The translations under genes and the position numbers were made by a program. Of a stretch of DNA of 64,000 bases, positions 1,296-53,012 are shown in pieces. Origin of the DNA: Eledone cirrhosa (lineage: Eukaryota); contig OZ024740.1 in the NCBI GenBank assembly GCA_964016885.1, positions 280,860,001-280,924,000 of the forward strand. The letters run 5' to 3'. The notes beneath the pieces are model-generated. The model was not told where the DNA came from, ran no database searches, and saw only the letters and a list, made by a program, of their open reading frames with translations. How positions within the stretch are numbered: the stretch's first letter is position 1; each line of letters begins with the position of its first letter.

Positions 1296-1340
<45 letters not shown>

Positions 1341-1343
<3 letters not shown>

Positions 1344-1540
1344 AGTATGCACACGTACATACATATATGTATACAGACGCACAGTAGTATGTATATATAT
1401 ATACATACATGCACACATATATACATGTACGTATGGATTCACCGAACACTTATTATAATGCTCGATGTGTTTGTAAACAAACATCCCGCATTAAACCGTA
1501 GTGTCCAGCAACCATCGTTGCTCGTTTGTTCAACACTGAC
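1341..1540 (-). mobile_element. Partial copy of the ~424-bp retrozyme-like family (family C); stops before the HHR
   Basis: Near-identical to 6032-6197, 19778-19978 and 32338-32531; flanked by (TA)n. Confidence 0.8.
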
Positions 1541-4221: not shown

Positions 4222-4374
4222 ATATAGATGGAAGTATTAACAGAGAAGCACCCAAGACACATCATTCAAAGCACCAAATAGTTCAATAGAGGACATAAAG
4301 ATTAGAGGAGATAAAGTCACACAACATCAAGTGTACAAATCATCCAACTTAACATGGAATTAAAAAATGTCTTA

Positions 4375-4912
<538 letters not shown>

Positions 4913-5968: not shown

Positions 5969-6031
5969 TATATATATCTCAGCCGTCGGGGTCCTGACTC
6001 TTTTCTTATATATAAATATATATATATATAT

Positions 6032-6640
6032 ATAAGTATGTACACGTACATACATATATGTATACCGACGTACAGTAGTATGTATATATATATATATATA
6101 TACATACATGCACACATATATATATGCACGTATGGATTCACCGAATATTTATTATAATGCTCGGTGTGTTTGTAAACAAACATCCCGTATTAAGCCGTTT
6201 CATTTTTTCCGTTTATCGTTTTCGGTGTACCCGGCCGATTAACCCACTCGATATGCAAATTGGGCTACTCAGCCGTTAATATGCATAAGGTAAGTATATA
6301 CGTTCAACAATCTGGCAGGAAGGTATACGTTGCTGACGATAGCTAACAAGCTTGAAACTAGTACAGCGTTCCTTTGTCAGTGTTGAACAAACGAGCAACG
6401 GTGGTTGCTAGACACTACGGCTTAATACGGGATGTTTGTTTACAAACACACCGAGCATTATAATAAATATTCGGTGAATCCATACGTGCATATATATATG
6501 TGTGCATGTATGTATATATATATATATACATACTACTGTACGTCGGTATACATATAAGTATGTACGTGTACATACTTATATTTAAGTAACAGCCGTACTA
6601 AGAGTGGGAAATGAAATATCGTTTCATTTTTTCCGTTTAT
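6032..6640 (+). mobile_element. Retrozyme-like family C: inverted partial copy (6032-6197) fused to one full 424-bp unit (6196-6640)
   Basis: Terminal direct repeat cgtttcattttttccgtttat at 6196-6216 and 6620-6640; central HHR; (TA)n on both sides. Confidence 0.85.
6328..6368 (+). ncRNA. Minimal type I hammerhead ribozyme (family C)
   Basis: cgttg CTGACGA t agct aaca agct t GAAA ctag TA cagcg. Confidence 0.9.
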
Positions 6641-6662
6641 ATATATATATTTATATATATAT

Positions 6663-6708
<46 letters not shown>

Positions 6709-6934
6709 ACATATATATATACATATACATACACATATACACATGAACGCCCATATACACATACAAATACGCATATATACATACACATAAAAAAACGTCC
6801 ACATATAGAAATATATACATACCTACAACTGACATGCATATATACATATGGATCCGAATATGAATATCCAAGTTCCATTGCATGCATAATGTATATAAGA
6901 TGGGCGGTTGAATGTATGTGGGTACTGTGGTAGG

Positions 6935-8080
6935 AGGATGGTGGTAGGAGGATGCTGCTCTGTCAAAGATAGCCTTATTAGAATCTCAAAAACCTCTCTT
7001 CTAATAAGGCTACTATAAGCTAACAGCGGCTTCTCGCAACCTATCACTTACTCTCCTACTAACAACAACAGCAATAAGAAAAGAAAGTGTAACAATATAC
7101 AAACTATCTGGTTCTCTCCTCCCTTCTCACTCAACGTTAAAACCAATGTAGGCAAAAAATTTCTAGCCCTCTTAGATAGACACTTTCCCATTGGTCATAA
7201 ATACCGCTCCATTTTAACCAACACAAAGTAAAACTAGGATCCTCCTGCACTAAGAACATGAAGGCCCACATCACCAACAGCCCTAACAGCAACTCCCCAC
7301 CAAGGTGCTTTTGCCGTAAGCCCGACGCTTGTCCCCTTCAACAGCAATGCAACACACCCGCTGTAGTTTATGAAGCTGTGGTCACTTGCAACCGACCAAA
7401 TCAACCACAGGAGGTCAAACTCTATGTGGGTATGGCGGAGGGCCGATTTAAGGAACGCTTCCAGACCACCCGGATAGACGTTCATCCACGAAACTCGCGA
7501 GCCATGTATGGTCCCTCAAGGACTCAAGTAAAGACTAGTCCATTCAATGGAAAGCCATCACTAAGTCCAAGCCATACGCAAGAGGCAATCCGTCGTGTGG
7601 ACTATGTTTTGATGAACGAATAAATATTCTAAAGAGATTACGCAACAGTGATTGCCTAAACTCGAGAAATGAATTCTTCACACGTATATATATATATATT
7701 TTTTTTTCTATATATATATTTTTATTTTTATTTACATTTATTTACGTATTAACGTGTATTCATCTATTTGTTCCTCTATCCTTCTTATCTTCTCTCTATC
7801 ATACGTTTATTCTTATTTACATTTGTCTCTCATCTATATATCATCGTATTCTATATATCTTCCTCTCTTTATATTTCTATCTATAATAACTTCTCCTTTT
7901 CTTCTTCTTTCTCTTTTTCTTTTTCTTTTTCCTTCTTCTTCTTTTTCCTTCCTTTCCTTTCTTTCTTTACTGTATCTATCTCCCTTTCTTCCTCCCTTTT
8001 CTCTCTATATCTTTATTATTAATATTATTATTGATGATGTAATTTGAATTTGTAAATTTGTTTCCGATGATCTAGTAGAG
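6935..8080 (+). mobile_element. Degenerate Hydra-like Penelope element 3' part (thumb, linker, GIY-YIG, 3' tail) with a short inverted 5' segment
   Basis: IWFSPPFSLNVKTNVGKKFL..LDRHFP; CFCRKPDACPL..VVYEA..LYVGMAEGRFKERF; 6935-7000 encodes SNKAIFDRAASSY on the minus strand. Confidence 0.85.
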
Positions 8081-10626
8081 TTAATGTCGGTTGACAGTCT
8101 GGCAAACTACATCCAGGCAATGCAACCCCACATCACTAACACAAGAGAAGTAACACCACAAGAGCATGAGGATAGAGAAAAAACCCTCAATCCCCATATG
8201 ATGATGTGGACAAATATAATGCAGCCCAACAAAAGGACTGCCAACAACTTCCAGGCCTGGAACAATGACGTGCCAGTGTTGTATGGGCTTCGAAAAGACC
8301 ATAAAACGAGCAGTGACCCTGTCACAGGACCACCAACACGCCAGTCTGTGGAGCTAACATTGCTAGTAACTACAGACGGTCCTACTTCCTCTCCCTGATC
8401 ATACGCCCCATCATTGAAATGTCCCCAGATGTATGTGACAGCACGGAGGACCTCCTCAGCAGAATCGGCGAGAGTAACCGATCTAGGGACCTAACAAACT
8501 GCATAATAGGTAGTATGGATGTTGTGTCCCTGTATCCATCTATGGGCGTGGATTTTGCTGTGGAGAAATGCGGAGAAATGATCAGTGAGAGCAATGTTGA
8601 ATTCCGTGGGATTGATACCAGTGAGCTGGGACTCCTACTTAAACTTACCTATAGTAATAATTATCAAGACACATATGACCTTAGCAACCTGTGCCCTACA
8701 AGACCAGCAAGAGGCAGACCACCTACCATTACCTCAATGGCCAAGAAAACTCACACAGATAGATGGAACGGGTGGACCAGAGCCATACGGACCCCCGAAA
8801 ACCACGATGAACTAAAGAAAATGATTGCACATGCGGTGGGGCCAGCATAAAATTAACCCTTAAGGAACATATGTTCAAATTTAATGGAAAAACATATGCC
8901 CAAGAGGAGGGAGCAGCCATTGGTGTTAGCATTGCAGGCGACATAGCTAACCTATTCATGGTATGGTGGGACAGTAGACTTAAACTTAAACTTAAAGAAC
9001 AATTTGAAGACCCCTTAACCCTGATAATGTACTCCCGCTACGTTGATGATATAAACATCGTAGTTAAAATACCCCCACTAGAGAACAGTGAGGAATTAGA
9101 GAAAAACACAATGGAAAGCATCCAGCAAATAGCTAACTCCATCCACCAGAGTATTAGAGTTACTATAGACTACCCAAGCAAACAGCCCAACCATCGATTA
9201 CCTGTACTAGACACAGAGCTCTGGTTAGATACCATTAATAACAAAAAACAAATCCTCCATTCCCATTATGCCAAACCCATGACTTCCAAATATCTGATCC
9301 ATCGAAACTCAGCTGTTTCGGACCATACCAAAATCAACATACTGATTGCGGATTTGGTACGGGTGATGAGAAACGTGTCCCGCATGTGCAACCCCGAAGA
9401 ACTAGGGAGACACATACAACACTTCATCCACCGTATGCAGTTCTCTGGTTACAATCAGAGAGATAAAATCAGAGTGTATAGAGGAGCCAGAACCAAATGG
9501 GAAAAATTGGTAAATAATGACATAAATGGGACCTGTCCCTTGTATAGGAGCAAATTTTGGAATAGAATAGAAAGAACTAGGAATAAGGCTAATAGAATAA
9601 ACTCATGGTATGATAGCAATAATACCAGAGTGGAATGTTCATCGATACAACTCCTAGAGGTGAATTAGCTTACAAATTTAGAAGTGCCCTAGATAAACAT
9701 AAACTCAATATTAAGATAGTAGAAAGACCAGGTACCTCCATAAAAAAAACTTATTAGCAAGACATACCCTTTTCAAAGACCTCCCTGGATAGATAAAAAA
9801 TGTATAATCTGTAAATTAAGCCCCCATATTAACTGTAAAACTAAAAATGTAGTATATAGCATAAGATGTACTGAAGGACAATGTAGAGATAAAAATATAG
9901 TGTACATAGGTGAGACAGCTCGTAGTATAGGGGAACGGATAAATGAACACTGGCAAGACCTTCAAGATAGTAAAGAATCATCTGTACTCTACCAACATGC
10001 TAAAATAGAACATAAGGGTAAATTAGAGAACATAGAAATAAAAATTGAATCTACACACAGAAAAGACGCAATGTTTAGACAAATCACAGAGGCAATAAAC
10101 ATAAATGAATTACAACCAAAATTAAATAGAAAATATGAGTGGAACATCAACATCACAACTTACAATTAAGGACAAAATGAAAACACACTCGCACATAGAA
10201 CAAACAACCAACCAGTAACATGTAAATAAACAAATAAATAAACGAATATAAACACACACAGACACCCGGATGTAACACATGCGCAAACTAAGCACACAAC
10301 ACACAAAAACAAGATTTCGTAGGTCAGAACAAAGGAGAGGCACAAAAAAACAAAAAAAAAAACAAAGAAAAGAATCCCCAGTCACTGAAGAGGTCACAGA
10401 ATGTGTGACGAAAGAACTTTGACAATATATAAACAACCATCTGGTTGTGGAACCAACTAACCGGAAATTTATAAATTCCTAAATTTATAAATTTATTATA
10501 ATAAATTGAAGTGAAAGCAATGGTGCGTGTGTTTCTTATTGGCAACATGGCCCTCCCAAAGTATAACAATATCGGTTTCAACACACGTTTTCAGATAAAG
10601 AATCTTTCTAAACAAATTCAGAAACG

Positions 10627-10630
<4 letters not shown>
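8081..10630 (+). mobile_element. Penelope-like element (Neptune/Nematis-like), 5'-truncated and frameshifted; RT + GIY-YIG + pLTR with HHR
   Basis: LYGLRKDHK; SMDVVSLYPS; QEEGAAIG..IANLFM; YSRYVDD; YIGETARSIGERINEH..EAINI..PKLN; ends in (TA)n. Confidence 0.95.
10381..10423 (+). ncRNA. Minimal type I hammerhead ribozyme in pLTR (family A)
   Basis: gtca CTGAAGA g gtcaca gaatg tgtgac GAAA gaac TT tgac. Confidence 0.85.
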
Positions 10631-10708
<78 letters not shown>

Positions 10709-10861
10709 TAAAATAACAGATTAAAGTTTAAGCAAATAATCGCTACTTTCATCCTTAACGGGATCTACGGTTCTTATATATTTGATATATGTTTATCCTT
10801 ATCGAGCCCTCTTTGGATTTTAGTCTTCAAATTTATTATTATTACTATATATATATATATA

Positions 10862-14960: not shown

Positions 14961-15374
14961 ACAGGTCCCACCGCATGGTTGAAAAAGATATCTCTTTGGT
15001 AATTTACGACCACAGTTCAGTGGTAGGTACATGAGACCAGATTCACTAATTGACACATAAATAACACCTCGCTCCACAAATTGCAAACACAATGGTTGAG
15101 AAGAGACTTTAGGAACTTATATGTCAGCCGAGCACACGACTAGGAGTACGTGTTTTTTTTTTTGCCTGCGCTGTGGCATATCACAAAATCAGATTTTCAT
15201 CTGAAGATATCGTTCTGATGACAACAACAAATGCATAAATTACATCTTAGATTGCATAAGAGAACCGTTGAAATGATTATTTTGAATAAATGATTTATGT
15301 AACATCACCATGTTTCTTAATGTTATTCTTATATATTTTTCGATATAACCCATACGTACATATGTATATGTATA

Positions 15375-15459
<85 letters not shown>

Positions 15460-15618
15460 ATACTTTGAGAGGGTCATGTTGCCAATAAGAAACACACGCA
15501 CCAGTTGCTTTCACTTCAATTTATTATATATTTATGAATTTATAAATTTACAAATCTACAAATTTATAAATTTCTGGTTGGTTGGTTGGTTCCACAACCA
15601 GATAGTTGTTTATATATA

Positions 15619-15661
15619 GTCATAGTCCTTTCGTCACACACTCTGTGACCTCTTCAGTGAC
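15619..15661 (-). ncRNA. Minimal type I hammerhead ribozyme (family A)
   Basis: RC gtca CTGAAGA g gtcaca gagtg tgtgac GAAA ggac TA tgac. Confidence 0.88.
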
Positions 15662-15866
15662 TGGGGATTCCTTTCTTTGTTTCTGTGCCTTTCCTTTCTT
15701 CTGTCCTACGCCATTTTGTTTCTGTGTGTGTGTTGTGTGCTCAGTTTGCGCATGCGCCACATCCGGGTGCCTGTGTGTGTTTGTGTTCATTTATCTATTT
15801 GTTTATTTATTTACATGTTATTGGTTGGTTGTTTGTTCTATGTGTGTGTGTGTTTTCATTTTGTCC

Positions 15867-17300
15867 TTAATTGTAAGTTGTGATGTTGCTGTTCCACTCA
15901 TATTTTCTATTTAATTTTGGTTGTAATTCTTTTATGTTTATTGCCTCTGTAATTTGTCTAAACATTGCATCTTTTCTGTGTGTAGATTCTATTTTTATTT
16001 CTATGTTCTCTAATTTACCCTTGTGTTCTATCTTAGCATGTTGGTAGAGTACAGATGATTCTTTATTATCTTGAAGGTCTCGCCAGTGTTCATTTATCCG
16101 TTCCCCTATACTACGAGCTGTCTCACCTATGTACACTATATTTTTGTTTCTACATTGTCCTTCAGTACATCTTATGCTATACACTACATTTCTAGTTTTA
16201 CAGTTATTATGGGGGCTTATTTTACAGGTTATACATTTCTTATCTATACATGAGGGTCTTTGGAACGGGTATGTCTTGCTAATAAGTGTTTTTACGGAGG
16301 TACCTGGTCTTTCTACTATCTTAATATTGAGTTTATGTTTATTTAGGGCCCTTCTAAATTTGTAGGCTAGTTCGCCTCTAGGGGTTGTATCGATGAACAT
16401 TACACTCTGGTATTTATTGCTATCATACCATGAGTTTATTCTATTGGCCTTGTTCCTAGTTCTTTCTATTCTATTCCAAAATTTGCTCCTATACAAGGGG
16501 CAGGTCCCATTTATGTCCTTATTTACCATTTTTTCCCATTTGGTTCTGGCTCCTCTATACACTCTGATTCTATCTCTCTGATTGTAGCCAGAGAACTGCA
16601 TACGGTGGATGAAGTGTTGTATGTGTCTCTCTAGTTCTTCGGGGTTGCACATGTGGGACACATTTCTCATCACCCGTACCAAATCCTCAATCAGTATGTT
16701 GATTTTGGTATGGTCCGAAATGGCCGAGTTTCGGTGGATCAGATGTTTGGAAGTCATGGGTTTGGCATAATGGGAATGGAGGATTTGTTTTTGGTTGTTA
16801 ATGGTATCTAACCAGAGCTCTGTGTCTAGTACAGGTAATCGATGGTTGGCGTGTCTACTTGGGTAGTCTATAGTAACTCTAATGCTCTGGTGGATGGAGT
16901 TTGCTATTTTCTGGATGCTTTCCATTGTGTTTTTCTCTAGTTCCTGACTGTTCTCTAGTGGGGGTGTCTTAACTACGATGTTTATATCATCTACGTAGCG
17001 GGAGTACATTATCATGGTTAAGCTGTCTTCTAATTGTTCTTTAAGTTTAAGTTTAAGTCTACTGTCCCACCATACCATGAATAAGTTAGCTATGTCGCCT
17101 GCAATGCTAACACCAATGGCTGCTCCTTCCTCTTGGGCATATGTTTTTCCATTAAATTTGAACATATGTTCCTTACGGGTTAATTTTATGCTGGCCCCTA
17201 TCGTATGTGCAATCATTTTCTTCAGTTCATCGTGGTTTTCGGGTGTCCGTATGGCTCTGGTCCACCCGTTCCATCTATCTGTTTGGGTTTTCTTGTCCAT
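15867..17300 (-). pseudogene. Uninterrupted 477-aa PLE ORF segment: RT C-terminal half + Cys linker + GIY-YIG endonuclease
   Basis: GAAIG, RYVDD, LPVLD, CIDKKCITC..C, NVVYSIRC..C..YIGET..R..EH, H..R..EA..LN. Confidence 0.92.
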
Positions 17301-17394
17301 TGAGGTAATGGTATGTGGTCTGCCTCTTGCTGGTCTTGTAGGGCACAGGTTGCTAAGGTCATATGTGTCTAGGTAACTATTATATATATATATA

Positions 17395-17705
17395 TTTATT
17401 AAAATAACAGATTAAAGTTTAAGCAAAGAATCGCTGCTTTCACCCTTAACGGGATCTTCTTTGGTTCATAATGTGTGATGATAGTCAAGTTTGCAATTTT
17501 CAACTGTGGTCCACAGTTGAAAATTGCAAACTTGACTGTCACCACATATTATGAACCTGAAGATTGCGAAAGCATGAAGTAATTGTTCAATTAACACTTA
17601 ACATTTAATATTCTACCATACTATTTCATTCTAATACCATTATAAAATTTAAAGGATTGTAAATAAAACGAGTAAATCAGACAAAGTTGGAATTCCTTTT
17701 ATTAA
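17395..17705. repeat. pLTR-like relic containing a ~95-bp palindrome (17463-17557); related sequence at 10705-10775 and 63672-63740
   Basis: ggttcataat..ttgcaattttcaactgtgg t ccacagttgaaaattgcaa..attatgaacc; shared gatcccgttaagg.tgaaagcagcgattctttgcttaaac. Confidence 0.7.
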
Positions 17706-19717: not shown

Positions 19718-20252
<535 letters not shown>

Positions 20253-20436
20253 AGAACCGTTGAAATGATTATTTAAGATTAAGATCCGGATCTAGCTGTC
20301 GAAACAGCCGTAGCTCAGTCGCCGGGGTCCTGACTCTTTTCCTATTACCCACTCTACTACACTAAGTATTGAGTACGTAGGTGCGTTATGGTTCACCTGG
20401 TATCTTACCACACCCCGTTTGTTATATATATATATG

Positions 20437-20488
<52 letters not shown>

Positions 20489-21502: not shown

Positions 21503-21714
21503 AAACTATATATATGTGTTTGTGTCTATATTGTATCTGTATTATTTTTGACCGCCGGTCAGTCAATGGCAACATTGTAAGTTAGATTACCGATATAAAA
21601 GACACAGAAGCGAGAAGCGAAAACCAACCAAACAGTGAGTGTGTTCTGTTATTAATTCTGGCAATATTACACAAATATGACCCTCCCCAAGTATAACAAT
21701 ATATATATATATAT

Positions 21715-22239
21715 TGTTATGCTTTGGGAGGGTCATGTTGCCAGTAAGAAACACACGCACCAGTTGCTTCACTTCAATTTATTATAATAAATTTATAATA
21801 AATTTATAAATTTATAAATTTCTGATTGGTTGGTTCCACAACCAGATAGTTGTTTATATATTGTCATAGTTCTTTCGTCACACACTCTGTGACCTCTTCA
21901 GTCCTACGCCATTTTGTGTCCTACGCCATTTTGTTTCTGAGAAACAAAATGGCGTAGGACAGAACAAAGGAGAGGCACAGAAACAAAGAAAGGAATCCCC
22001 AGTCACTGAAGAGGTCACAGAGTGTGTTACGAAAGAACTATGACAATATATAAACAACTATCTGGTTGCGGAACCAACCAACCAACCAGAAATTTATTAT
22101 AAATTTATTATAATAAATTGAAGTGAAAGCAACTGGTGCGTGTGTTTCTTATTGGCAACATGACCCTCCCAAAGTATAACAATATCGGTTTCAACACACG
22201 ATTTCAGATAAAGAATCCTGCTAAACAAATTCAGAAACG

Positions 22240-22245
<6 letters not shown>
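21715..22245. mobile_element. Head-to-head solo pLTR pair of family A, each with an HHR (21863-21902 minus; 22002-22044 plus)
   Basis: Palindromic junction ccattttgtttc tga gaaacaaaatgg; both arms match 10330-10630. Confidence 0.9.
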
Positions 22246-26873: not shown

Positions 26874-26879
<6 letters not shown>

Positions 26880-27366
26880 GGAAAAAATGAAATTTCATTT
26901 CTCACTCTTAGTACGGCTGATACTTTAATATAAGTATGTATACGTACATACATATATGTATACAGACGTACAGTAGTATGTATATACATACATACATGCA
27001 CACATATATATATGTACGTATGGGTTTACCGAACATTTATTATAATGTTCGGTTTGTTTGTAAAGAAACAGCCCGAATTATTAGCCGTACAGTGTTCGGC
27101 AACCATCGTTGCCATTTTGTTCAACACTGACAAAGGAACGATGAACTAGTTTCTAGCTTATTAGCTGTCATCAGCACCGTATACCTTCCTGTCAGTCAAT
27201 TGAACGTTTGAAAGCTAATAATTCGAGCTGTTTGTTTACAAAGAAACCGAACATTATAATAAATGTTCGGTAAACCCATACGTAGATATATATATATGTG
27301 TGCATGTATGTATGTATATACATACGACTGTACGTCTGTATACATATATGTATGTACGTATACATA

Positions 27367-27370
<4 letters not shown>
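26874..27370. mobile_element. Retrozyme-like family C, diverged subfamily, as an inverted pair
   Basis: 26874-27192 and its partial RC 27216-27370; HHR at 27139-27179. Confidence 0.85.
27139..27179 (-). ncRNA. Minimal hammerhead ribozyme (family C variant) with a compensatory stem I change
   Basis: RC cggtg CTGATGA c agct aata agct a GAAA ctag TT catcg. Confidence 0.88.
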
Positions 27371-27411
<41 letters not shown>

Positions 27412-31518: not shown

Positions 31519-31816
31519 TTCGCCTAATCAATAACCAATCGATCGACAGAATTCGATTCCAGTCCGCGTCGGCTATGACAGTGAATGTGACGGCCGACAC
31601 AGTAAAACATTAGTAAATGAAATCCCTACGCGTCATCACAATGCCGTCAACCGATTGACCACTGGTTCAGAAATTTACGTGACAGTGGGAGATGAAATTC
31701 AAATAATTCCGCTCCCGCCATAAGTACTCAGCCAACTTATCTCATACAGAAATTAACAAGCGAGTGAAATATCGGTTATTAGAGAAAATCACTGTCCAAT
31801 ATATATATATATATAT

Positions 31817-32088
31817 TTCGTTTCTGAATTTGAGAAACAAAATGGCGTAGGACAGAAGAAAGGAAAAGCACAGAAACAAAGAAAGGAATCCCCAGTCACT
31901 GAAGAGGTCACAGAGTGTGTGACGAAAGGACTATGACTATATATAAACAACTATCTGGTTGTGGAACCAACCAACCAACCAGAAATTTATAAGTTTGTAA
32001 ATTTATAAATTTATAAATATATAATAAATTGAAGTGAAAGCAACTGGTGCGTGTGTTTCTTATTGGCAACATGACCCTCCCAAAGTAT

Positions 32089-32095
<7 letters not shown>
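31817..32095 (+). mobile_element. Solo family A pLTR with HHR (31895-31937) and a 15-bp inverted terminus
   Basis: gtca CTGAAGA g gtcaca..tgtgac GAAA ggac TA tgac; tttcgtttctgaatttg is the RC of the pLTR end. Confidence 0.88.
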
Positions 32096-32172
<77 letters not shown>

Positions 32173-32337
32173 TTCATACATGCTTATGCGTGTGTCGAGT
32201 ATTTAGTACATGATGATATTTTTCAAGATGGTTTATAACATCAATATTTCAACATCACACCACAGTATTTGTATGTGTGGAACAATATATTTAGTTGTTT
32301 GTCATTACACCTTTGAAAATGAAGAAACATAATAGAT

Positions 32338-32958
32338 ATAAGTATGTACACGTACATACACATCTGTATACAGACGTACAGTAGTATGTATATATATATA
32401 CATACATGCACACATATATATATGTACGTATGGATTCACCGAACATTTATGCTCGGTGTGTTTGTAAACAAACATCCCGTATTAAGCCGTAGTGTCCAGC
32501 AACCATCGTTGCTCGTTTGTTCAACACTGACAAAGAAACGCTGTACTATTTTCAAGCTTATTAGCAACGTATACCTTCCTGCCAGATTGTTGAACGTATA
32601 TACATATTAACTTATGCATATTAACGGCTGAGTAGCCCAATTTGCATATCGAGTGGGTTAATCGGCCGGGTGCACCGAAACGATAAACGGAAAAAATGAA
32701 ACGAAATTTCATTTCCCACTCTTAGTACAGCTGTTACTTAAATATAAGTATGTACACGTACATACATATATGTATACAGACGTACAGTAGTATGTATATA
32801 TATATATACATACATGCACACATATATATATATGTTCGTATGGATTCACCGAACATTTATTATAATGCTCGGTGTGTTTGCAAACAAACATCCCGTATTA
32901 AGCCGTAGTGTCCAGCAACCATCGTTGCTCGTTTGTTCAACACTGACAAAGGAACGCT
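32338..32958 (-). mobile_element. Retrozyme-like family C, 1.5 head-to-tail units (period 406 bp); HHR core deleted
   Basis: ataagtatg at 32338 and 32744; ...ttagcaacg lacks the tcgtcag core. Confidence 0.88.
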
Positions 32959-45353: not shown

Positions 45354-46285
45354 GCGGAGGCCTCCTACCTCTTCGGTCTCATAATTAGCCTTGGCAAGAC
45401 TGATGTCCTGTTCCAGCCTGCACCTGCCTCCGTCGCCCACCTCCTTCCATCTCCATTGGAGGCACCCAGCTAAAGACGGTGGACGACTTCAAGTACCTCG
45501 GCAGTATCATCAGCAGCGATGGAAGCCTCGACGAGGAGATAAACGCCAGGATCTGCAAGGCTAGTCAAGCCCTTGGCCGCCTGAGGACACGCGTCCTGAA
45601 CCAGCACAATATCAGGCAGTCCACCAAGCTCAAGGTGTACAGGGTTGTTATTCTCAGCAGACTCTTCTACGCATGTGAGACATGGACCCTGTACAGAAGG
45701 CACCTGAAGCAGCTGCAAGTGTTCTACATGCGCAGCCTGCGGTCAATCATGAACATCAAATGGCAGGACAAGGTCTCCAACCTCGAAGTTCTTGACATGG
45801 CTGAGACAACCAGTGTCGAAGCTATGATACTGAAGAGCCGACTTCGATGGGTGGGACATGTCATCCGGATGGACGATCACAGGCTTCCGAAGAAACTGAT
45901 GTATGGGGAACTCTGTTCGGGGAAACGAAAGCAGGGCAGCCCTCTCAAGAGGTTCAAGGACTGTGTGAAGCCCAGCATCAACAACACTGGAATCGCCCCA
46001 AAACAACTCGAGTCCCATGCTCAGGACAGGACTGAGTGGCGAGCCCTTACCAAACACGCCAAAGACTCTTTTGAAGAGAAGAGACGGACAGAGGTCACTA
46101 AGGCCCGTAAAAGGAGGAGAAAGTCATCAGCAGCTGCCCAAGTGACTCCGGTCTCTTCCCCTGCCCCCACTGTCCCCGTACCTGCAAGTCAAGGATCGGC
46201 CTCCACAGCCACCTTCATGCCACGGCAGACAGGAACAACAATAAAGAAGTTGTCATCATCGTTTACGATGGGCAACCAAGAAGAG
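45354..46285 (+). mobile_element. RTE/BovB-like LINE, 5'-truncated, with a 26-bp TSD
   Basis: FKYLGS..EINARICKASQALGRL..RLRWVGHVIRMDDHRLPKKLMYGEL; TSD acaattatttgcttgaaaatatgaac (45328-45353/46286-46311). Confidence 0.95.
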
Positions 46286-47479
46286 ACAATTATTTGCTTG
46301 AAAATATGAACAGTTGTTGGTTATTTGTATTTTGTTGAATTCATTGAACATTCTTATCCTGCTAATTGTGAATTCAATAAGAATTTGTAATGTTTGTGAA
46401 AGTGGTTTTTGATTGAAGAGCACCCTTGGAGGTGCTCTTCACTTGCTAATATTTGCAACTATATCTCCATTGAACTATGCCTGAAAAATATAATTTTAAA
46501 ACAATCTGCCACAACATGCTTTGAATTCACGTATGTAACGCCGGTCGAACGTGGAAACGATGCGTGTGAAAGACATATCACAACGCATATGAACACCATA
46601 TATATAGTTACAGACTCAGCATACATTGAGTATCATAGAACAAACGCAAATACAGTTTGGCTGAAAATATAGACCCCCAAACTCATATAAACACACCCGA
46701 AATTACAACAAAACGTAATACAAACAACCTTCTTCACCTTATTAAATTCTCCAACTTCAACAACGATATTATATCATTTAGAAACCGTAATTACACGTGA
46801 CGTTTTGAATTTAGTTGGACAGTGTTTTATTAGTTACTCAGAGGTGGGGGAAAGTAACGGCTACCGGTTCATTTCGAACATCTGTTGATTAACATCTGCT
46901 TTAAAAAAACAAACGAACAAACAAAAAAACGTTTTCATAGACTACAGTTCGGGCGAAAAATGATTAACAGTAGCCTGTAGTGCAAAATATTGGAGGTGAA
47001 ACATAGTAAAGGTGGCAATGTTAGATTGAATCTAGAAAAGCAAACTAATATCTTACAAAATCACAATGATTTCAGTATTCGAATTCAAAACGGAAAAGAT
47101 AAATAGTTTAAAGTACAGCTGAAATTTAATCTGTTCAAATGAGTTGATTGTAATTTATATTGAAAAATGAGATTAATTTGCGGGACAGTGAAAATATCGT
47201 TAAATCGATAACTACAGATGTTGTCCACAAGCCGTTTGTTATGATTAGGATATACTTTATTTGGTAAAACACTAAAACCTATTTGGGATAATACAATATT
47301 GGTGGTGAGTGAAGGTGGAAAAAGAGAGTGAGCTAGACTGGAGTGGAAGGGACACGAAAACAGCCAGCACTGAAAGGAGGCTACTGCAGTAGTGGTAGAA
47401 AAGGAAGAGGAAAAAGACAGCACATCTATGGAGTAGATGCTGGAATGTCCCAGTAACAGACACATTGTCAGTTAATTGA

Positions 47480-52621: not shown

Positions 52622-53012
52622 AGTAAGAATATTTTCGAAACAGCGAGTGGGTTTGAAATTATTAGAAATATAAGCTATCGCCGTATTTGACGTACATTGA
52701 CGTACATTTAGTCAAAATACGGTGATAGCTTACATTTCTAATAATTTCAAAGCCACTCGCTGTTTTGAAAATATTCTTACTTGACATTACAGTCGCTAAG
52801 TTTATAGCTTCTAATTTGAATGGAAAAAGACGGGTGATGTGTTGGTGTAAATGGTAGCACAGTGGTCCGGATAACCAAAGATGTGGGTTCGACTCCCATG
52901 TACGTTAATGTACGTTTTCCATTTCTCCGAGGGTTCTTAACCCCACTATCAGGCTAAATAATTTCTTTAATTTCTTTAGTCAAAATACGGCGATAGCTTA
53001 CATTTCTAATAA
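52620..53012 (+). mobile_element. Inverted + partial-tandem (268-bp period) non-coding element containing a tRNA-like cloverleaf
   Basis: 52620-52691 is the RC of 52711-52783; 52689-52707 is the RC of 52898-52916; direct repeat 52707-52745/52975-53013; (TA)n flanks. Confidence 0.8.
52836..52907 (+). tRNA. tRNA-like cloverleaf (pseudo-tRNA, 72 nt; nominal anticodon GGA, non-canonical loop)
   Basis: Acceptor gatgtgt/gtacgtt (GU-rich), D gtgt/gcac, anticodon tggt/acca, T gtggg-ttcgact-cccat; A and B boxes; TTTT at 52915-52918. Confidence 0.65.

Follow-up and report, generated by a model that had tools for sequence, protein, structure and literature searches.

The locus analyzed here raises the question of what kind of element a repeated 424-nt unit represents and by what route its copies were inserted. 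The unit lies in a window (the whole stretch of DNA analyzed, 64,000 nt) of the genome of Eledone cirrhosa, and a sequence-only reading had placed it at five loci of this window, all five of which were found by BLAST. We took window 6217-6640 (424 nt) as the reference unit and numbered it so that position 1 is 6364, the base after the predicted ribozyme cleavage point. S1 and S2 are two sites at which copies end on their 3' side. The features of the window that bear on the question are the following.

6007-6031, (TA)n beyond the S1 end of the inverted arm
6032-6198 (alignment from 6027), minus strand, inverted arm, unit 54 to about 217, ending at S1, 96.5% identity to the unit
6196-6198, head-to-head junction of both arms, 3-nt microhomology
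6196-6640, plus strand, main arm of 445 nt, starting (5') at unit 257 and finishing (3') at S2 (unit 277), with one 424-nt unit and a further 21 nt
6327-6369, plus strand, type I hammerhead of canonical type, core starting at 6333, predicted GUA cleavage at 6363/6364
6581-6640, plus strand, "tail" of 60 nt between S1 (about 6580) and S2 (6640), with a predicted hairpin inside
6641-6739, target tract rich in (TA)n, adjoining S2
1336-1540, minus strand, single 5'-truncated arm ending at S1, 91% identity to the 6217-6640 unit, no ribozyme
19718-20128, minus strand, single arm ending at S2, 95% identity, intact ribozyme, (TA)n on both sides
26874-27376, older two-arm insertion, with a minus arm (26874-27207, 86% identity to the 6217-6640 unit) ending at S2 and a plus arm (27219-27376) ending at S1
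32333-32958, minus strand, about 1.5 head-to-tail units ending at S1, 92% identity, ribozyme core deleted, 5' end at unit 2
15357-17411, minus strand, truncated copy of family A of the Penelope-like elements (PLEs), with RT and GIY-YIG; a second copy lies near 8050-10628

The 21-bp terminal redundancy with a period of 424 that had been noticed at this locus is exact (6196-6216 equals 6620-6640), and the copy described as 1.5 head-to-tail units is present at 32333-32958 on the minus strand. The stretch 6032-6198 had been misread as part of a direct unit; it corresponds to unit 54-217 in inverted orientation and meets the main arm head to head. This two-arm inverted structure, missed in the sequence-only reading, is the most informative feature of the locus.

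The unit occurs in head-to-tail tandem arrays of 2-10 units and contains no ORF, as had been stated, the longest stop-free frame of the concatenated unit being 51 aa on the plus and 60 aa on the minus strand. A short (~150-450 bp) non-coding tandem unit is what characterizes non-LTR retrozymes, and the RT plus GIY-YIG ORF between pLTRs that marks an autonomous PLE is absent from the 424-nt unit. In the 3.0-Gb genome, the search of which had been recommended together with the original proposal, the exact ribozyme-core pattern gave 7,528 matches and an exact 3'-proximal 30-mer gave 19,193 (reversed controls 0), both being counts of units and not of insertions; a degenerate ribozyme pattern gave 36,573 matches, a number that takes in ORF-less sister families. 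The 40 best-scored matches to a 285-nt piece of the unit showed 99-100% identity and were spread over 11 contigs, in agreement with the proposal that the family was recently active. The assignment to the retrozymes was also largely right, the unit being ORF-less, hammerhead-bearing, and arranged in tandem arrays. These sequence characters suggested that the repeat is likely a non-LTR retrozyme, that is, a non-autonomous PLE, and the family is a young, very abundant new member of an already known element class. With the metazoan non-LTR retrozymes described by Cervera and de la Pena 2020 (PMC7229834) and in bioRxiv 10.64898/2026.07.22.740005, it shares a short non-coding tandem unit of low GC, thousands of copies, a canonical type I hammerhead in each unit, a range from monomers to multimers, and the presence of PLEs in the genome; circular RNA and cleavage have been seen for those elements, whereas the present unit is known from its sequence alone.

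The predicted fold of the unit was more stable than that of shuffled sequences, both as a linear RNA (z = -6.1) and as a circle (-132 versus -97 +/- 5 kcal/mol for 40 shuffles), an effect due in part to TA/TG palindromes. A donor-like AG/GTAAGT motif in the unit was rejected as an intron signal, as it is not retained in older subfamilies. Rfam miRNA matches in the window were low-complexity noise, and no hammerhead occurred among the 150 of 193 Rfam matches listed for the window.

The hammerhead consists of a 6-bp helix I, a helix II of 3 bp with a U.U at its base (3-4 bp), and a 2-bp helix III with a palindromic loop, and the predicted GUA site falls at 6363/6364, where the cleavage point had been placed. 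It had been called a minimal type I hammerhead. In PMC4209133, the minimal form is defined by a long helix II (7-8 bp) with an unpaired 5' base and a short helix I (4-5 bp), a combination found in family A and not in the unit. By these definitions, the predicted ribozyme is of type I and of the canonical metazoan shape, and would be expected to work as a dimer; its U.U at the base of helix II is as in axolotl HHR_Amex2 (PMC7229834). The description of the unit as hammerhead-bearing applied to two of the five window loci, in which the ribozyme is intact (6333 and 20021), while the other three carry a GUU triplet (27174), a core deletion (the copy at 32.3-33.0 kb), or no ribozyme (the copy at 1336). 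Consecutive units in arrays match the ribozyme-core pattern. In a set of 12 hand-picked sequences from the unit and its sister families, representing about three independent lineages, 9 of 12 pairs changed on both sides, 93% of the cells paired, and 0 of 500 shuffles reached the score. This covariation of the helices across families argues for selection for the fold. A lone ribozyme-like match (L171), whose helix I fails to pair, was dropped and left out of this set. A search of Rfam with 101 bases gave HH9 at 19.2 bits (E = 0.0083), below the gathering score of 52.

The ends of copies were mapped at 112 loci. The first 100 ribozyme matches on one chromosome (C1) fall in 62 loci, of which 60 were used; a further 30 were taken from the matches to the 3' pattern, and 22 were best-scoring matches free of redundancy. 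The position-ordered samples were all from C1. The 112 loci were parsed into 121 events: 56 single arms, 57 head-to-head pairs, 7 others, and 1 dropped at a locus edge. The 3' ends of the single arms fell at S2 (unit 274-278) in 26 cases, at S1 (unit 212-223) in 18, and elsewhere in 12; that is, 44 of the 56 ended within 17 of the 424 positions. Both sites, which are 60 nt apart, end in TTAT and run into (TA)n, as had been described for the 3' ends, and exact junctions numbered 1,471 for S1-(TA) and 3,730 for S2-(TA) genome-wide, the two patterns differing in subfamily coverage. The 5' ends were scattered over the whole unit, so the statement that copies start and stop at varying points holds for their 5' ends and not for their two fixed 3' ends. 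Because of this difference, what had been taken for circular permutation is 5' truncation from S1 or S2 and is no evidence of a circle. Since S1 and S2 both end single arms, both behave as true start sites. Fixed 3' ends, an optional tail, and 5' truncation make up the footprint of EN+ PLEs, and all three were found in the unit. Retrozyme TSDs, where they occur, exceed 4 bp; for the unit, whose flanks are (TA)n, no clean empty site from which to read TSDs or TA growth was found among 188 events. A cluster of 5' ends at the ribozyme start may stem from the selection of loci by that motif. Copies nested in the unit's own internal (TA)n tract (unit 127-169) were seen at L072, L081, L093, L094, and L203.

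Inverted events accounted for 57 of the 121. In this first sample, all 37 inverted insertions with both ends classed (36 independent) combined one S1 end with one S2 end (S1+S2), and 20 of the 57 had an end elsewhere. A fresh sample of 60 new loci was drawn by one end only, with 38 selected by S1, 20 by S2, and 2 picked as possible exceptions. The S1-selected loci gave 25 inverted pairs (17 S1+S2, 2 S1+S1, and 6 unclassed), and the S2-selected loci gave 12 S1+S2 pairs (11 independent), no S2+S2, and 1 unclassed pair (pairing versus selected end, Fisher p = 1.4e-6). Overall, 64 of 66 independent classed pairs were S1+S2, i.e., carried one tail (p ~3e-17 at even odds). As for the two exception picks, L230 was S1+S1 and L229 had short S1+S2 arms. 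Three S1+S1 insertions were seen (L194, L211, and L230), and those at L194 and L211, whose arms differ at at least three diagnostic alleles, may be composite events. The S1+S2 combination was also found in the autonomous PLE family A, in 7/7 and then 12/12 insertions (19/19, the latter set classed by motif and strand, with one locus unclassed), in PLE family P2 (6/6 classed, of 10 rows), and in a 310-bp sister retrozyme (5/5 classed). For PLEs, a tail often present at one end only is described in PMC8557442 and PMC3846280, with other explanations; what is new here is the counted, near-strict rule of one end of each kind, a tail on one side having been known before in qualitative terms. The titles and abstract openings searched, in which subscription papers are incompletely covered, held no proposal of two-ended priming for PLEs.

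When arms were chosen regardless of the ribozyme (n = 124), 86 reached the cleavage site and 82 of these crossed it; the stop rate was 0.0020/nt at the site, 0.0018 before it, and 0.0025 after it. A pile-up of 5' ends at the cleavage site, hinted at by the ends at 32958 and in L006, was looked for and showed no excess. The crossing of the site without a raised stop rate argues that a cut linear monomer is not the usual template. Judged by these patterns, the template would span the cleavage site and be either circular or a multimer left uncut. A circular or multimeric template had already been proposed, and it is the spanning of the site that speaks for it, not the permutation from which it had been argued. 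Among the 101 events with repeated positions, 62 showed no allele conflict and 12 showed three or more, mixing subfamily alleles, a pattern that a single monomer circle cannot give. Most of these events fit a monomer circle, and for some one has to invoke nesting, template switching, or a multimer of mixed units.

The two arms of a pair resemble each other in their alleles. Where the arms overlap (45 pairs), they disagreed at 21 of 161 diagnostic alleles, versus 85% with shuffled partners (a control that is not age-matched), and 21 rare variants were common to both arms versus 0.9 expected, 10 of the 21 coming from one old locus. Such sharing indicates a common origin of both arms, either one RNA or one source locus. 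Neither arm was contained in the other in 16 of 35 pairs (15 of 34 once a duplicate is removed), and in 8 pairs the S1 arm exceeded the S2 arm by at least a whole unit. Shared template alleles together with independent arm lengths suggest that each end of the break served as a primer. A separate primer for each start site would be the simplest reading of the arms, and we consider it probable that reverse transcription was primed from both ends of one DNA break.

Shared alleles are also expected if the inverted arm arose by fold-back or self-priming, with back-copying of the first cDNA or of an antisense RNA, and with the tail asymmetry produced by endonuclease resolution of the intermediate; ideas of this kind are put forward for PLEs in PMC3846280 and PMC8557442. 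Among 97 arm junctions (55 with overlap, 10 blunt, and 32 with filler), nine are symmetric about an internal palindrome as fold-back would have it, and junction-proximal copies share rare variants at L204, L120, and L025. The other 88 junctions are asymmetric, however, and the simple version, which needs one arm inside the other, fails in the 16 pairs mentioned above and is at odds with the 8 in which the S1 arm is longer by a unit or more, as well as with single arms that end at S1 in addition to S2. An asymmetric deletion at the palindrome centre could rescue this explanation, which we regard as unlikely compared with priming from both ends. The form of the template is more evenly balanced. 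A circle as the main template is, from the sequence patterns, an even call. An uncut linear multimer transcribed from genomic tandem arrays, with no circle and with the ribozyme acting at another step or rarely, is a reasonable reading that we hold tentatively: the 12 insertions that mix subfamily alleles within one event (e.g., L101, L211, and L106) favor it, uncleaved RNA is the dominant substrate for the anole PLE (PMC11167929), and 8 of 9 Xenopus retrozyme dimers remained uncleaved in vitro (bioRxiv 10.64898/2026.07.22.740005). Against it stand the 62 multi-copy insertions free of allele conflict, rare alleles that run through every unit of both arms (7/7 in L210), the selection on the fold suggested by helix covariation, and the abundant circles given by the canonical type I retrozymes of coral, mussel, and axolotl, elements similar to the present one (PMC7229834).

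The shared insertion footprint agrees with the earlier proposal of copying by a co-resident (TA)n-targeting PLE, and from this footprint we consider the unit very likely to be a PLE-mobilized non-autonomous element. The search for a partner found no homologous terminal repeat: in 0.89 Mb of loci, an HMM built from four natural pieces revealed no autonomous element with such a repeat, and among the matches listed there were only known sisters and microsatellites. Family A has an open frame of ~1,240 aa, an RT match below the Pfam cut-off, two ends 59 nt apart, and 47,659 first-look candidates; it is young, carries a minimal-type ribozyme motif, shows a tandem period of ~4.05 kb (L274; family loci L261-L276), and has left short two-armed stumps at window 21711-22242 and 31800-32170. 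It has in common with the unit only the two-site spacing and a short motif out of register, and the inspected ends of families A and P2 showed no homology to the ends of the unit. Family A is a candidate for the enzyme source only by its youth, target, and site spacing. As fixed 3' ends, a tail, inverted arms, and 5' truncation are all typical of PLE stumps, the copies might instead be ordinary pLTR stumps, i.e., 5'-truncated ends of an unsampled autonomous PLE, the partner search having covered 9 window-derived protein pieces and ~1 Mb of loci. Upstream of the ribozyme, however, the sequence continues into the preceding unit, with as many as 10 units per array, and the ribozyme of family A is of the minimal type whereas that of the unit is canonical. 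The sequence-only reading had named constant attachment to a PLE ORF as the case against a retrozyme; 96 free 5' flanks, searched with 9 window-derived query proteins, included no shared ORF-linked flank, and the 6 with a same-strand PLE match within 1.5 kb had it beyond the (TA) tract (4), beyond the inverted arm (1), or as an unshared match of 38% (1). The pLTR-stump explanation is thus contradicted for the sampled copies and is very improbable as a whole. Still less probable is a DNA-level satellite or slippage product spread with no RNA step. Some arrays do show signs of amplification in place, with alternating variants in L120 and L080 and duplicated units in L021, and such an origin is plausible for array growth. 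For the dispersed copies it is contradicted by their 99-100% identity on at least 11 contigs, by strand-polar 5' truncation, by two fixed 3' sites of a kind also found in RT-encoding PLEs, and by the covarying ribozyme.

In L120:2715-7027 and L080:3837-5773, variant sets alternate strictly and a ribozyme helix is damaged in every other unit, a pattern that fits either a dimer template or local amplification. At L083:1-6567, two distinct two-arm insertions have each been duplicated on the spot together with their flanks, and similar local duplications were seen at L231 and L276.

Several related or neighboring repeats were encountered. The 310-bp ORF-less retrozyme family (L084:591-3040, L178, L179, and L180; C1 ~1.24, 5.76, 15.42, and 20.78 Mb) forms long head-to-head arrays, with 14 ribozyme matches at one locus; its ribozyme is related and shows compensatory changes, its tail is ~26 nt long, and it obeys the one-of-each rule. 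A ~75%-identical sister family (L172, L174-L177, and L181-L184), likewise ORF-less, has the same tail architecture and a period of ~470-540 bp because of a longer internal (TA)n, and a distant sister (L169:2690-3235 and L002:2660-3285) is two-armed, with a GUU triplet and a helix I of 7 bp. PLE family P2 (window 10701-10837; L083:6579-9901, L172:218-2358, L174:1-2379, and L266) has a 3' UTR of ~1 kb and a hammerhead-like stretch with CAGAAGA as its first box instead of CUGANGA. It is often inserted in the same (TA)n tracts as retrozymes, and its adjacency to sister units, which lies across (TA)n, was read as a shared target. Another short repeat forms inverted two-arm insertions around (TA)n at window 4372-4843 and 20335-20478. 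Hammerhead-like motifs were seen in the window at 1169 (-), 5006 (-), 17557, 20763 (-), 21465, 22399 (-), 59798, and 60031 (-); such further families number at least 6 in the window, with many more at other loci, and most of these motifs are probably PLE ends. An Rfam tRNA match at 52836-52907 (40 bits, above the gathering score) adjoins simple repeats and is possibly a SINE head. Window 45404-46309 and 1705-2091 resemble what we take to be the C-terminal part of an RTE-type LINE ORF, and 45404-46309 gave no Pfam match.

Taken together, these data led us to put at roughly three in four the probability that the unit is a non-autonomous retrozyme copied by PLE enzymes at fixed sites next to (TA)n, likely with two-ended priming. 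Tandem copies would be transcribed, and a PLE RT-endonuclease acting in trans would cut both strands within (TA)n. Each free 3' end would then start a cDNA at one of the two internal sites, in the fashion of an asymmetric dimer, and both cDNAs would run 5'-ward, with variable stops, on RNA of common source that is either circular or multimeric and uncut. The two cDNAs would be joined to each other through microhomology or short fillers, or, in single-arm copies, one cDNA would be joined straight to the target, and some long arrays may have been amplified further in place. If this is true, an asymmetric dimer with one DNA end per start site would account in a single step for the inverted arm and for the tail on only one side. 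Somewhat favored is the wider reading that PLEs insert by two-ended target-primed reverse transcription and that the retrozyme superfamily (36,573 ribozyme matches), which carries the footprint, is moved by PLE enzymes from cut-spanning templates.

The nearest biochemical parallel is Poseidon PAc of Anolis (Frangieh et al. 2024, PMC11167929), which is reported to cut both strands and to extend them, with a dimer as the proposed model and two internal start sites flanking the tail; the ribozyme was dispensable for insertion in vitro. As in the present unit, the two RT start sites of PAc lie downstream of the ribozyme, its target is AT-rich, and its template crosses the cleavage site. PAc is an autonomous element whose sites are described as lacking homology to the target, whereas the TTAT at the end of both S1 and S2 could pair with (TA)n; the coupling of both sites within one event, counted here, is not addressed in the text consulted. 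EN+ PLEs (Arkhipova et al. 2013, PMC3846280; Craig et al. 2021, PMC8557442) have 5' truncation, partial tandems, an inverted 5' arm, a tail that is often confined to one end, and (TA)n targeting in common with the unit, but their tails are 30-40 nt long, whereas that of the unit is 60 nt and the unit has no ORF. The explanation offered in those papers is resolution by the endonuclease or self-priming with an antisense template, whereas the 64 of 66 pairs counted here would be read as two-ended priming. Non-autonomous Chlamys PLEs, e.g., MRC1 (PMC8557442), are likewise ORF-less and form multicopy head-to-tail insertions. Metazoan retrozymes have been linked to PLEs by co-occurrence and pLTR homology, as in Li et al. 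2026 (bioRxiv 10.64898/2026.07.22.740005), where one of nine dimers was cleaved; the present unit, for which no homologous pLTR was found, is linked by its insertion footprint.

The origin of inverted and tailed PLE insertions is called undefined in the literature consulted, in which the link between PLEs and retrozymes rests on co-occurrence and homology. The counts presented here turn a tail often found at one end into a near-strict rule common to an autonomous PLE and ORF-less retrozymes, and predict that the two start sites will be anti-correlated within single insertions in an in vitro PLE system. The 424-nt family, which is young, has supplied this genome with a large number of insertions, and, if the proposed mechanism is true, it would provide direct genomic evidence that PLE enzymes move animal retrozymes.
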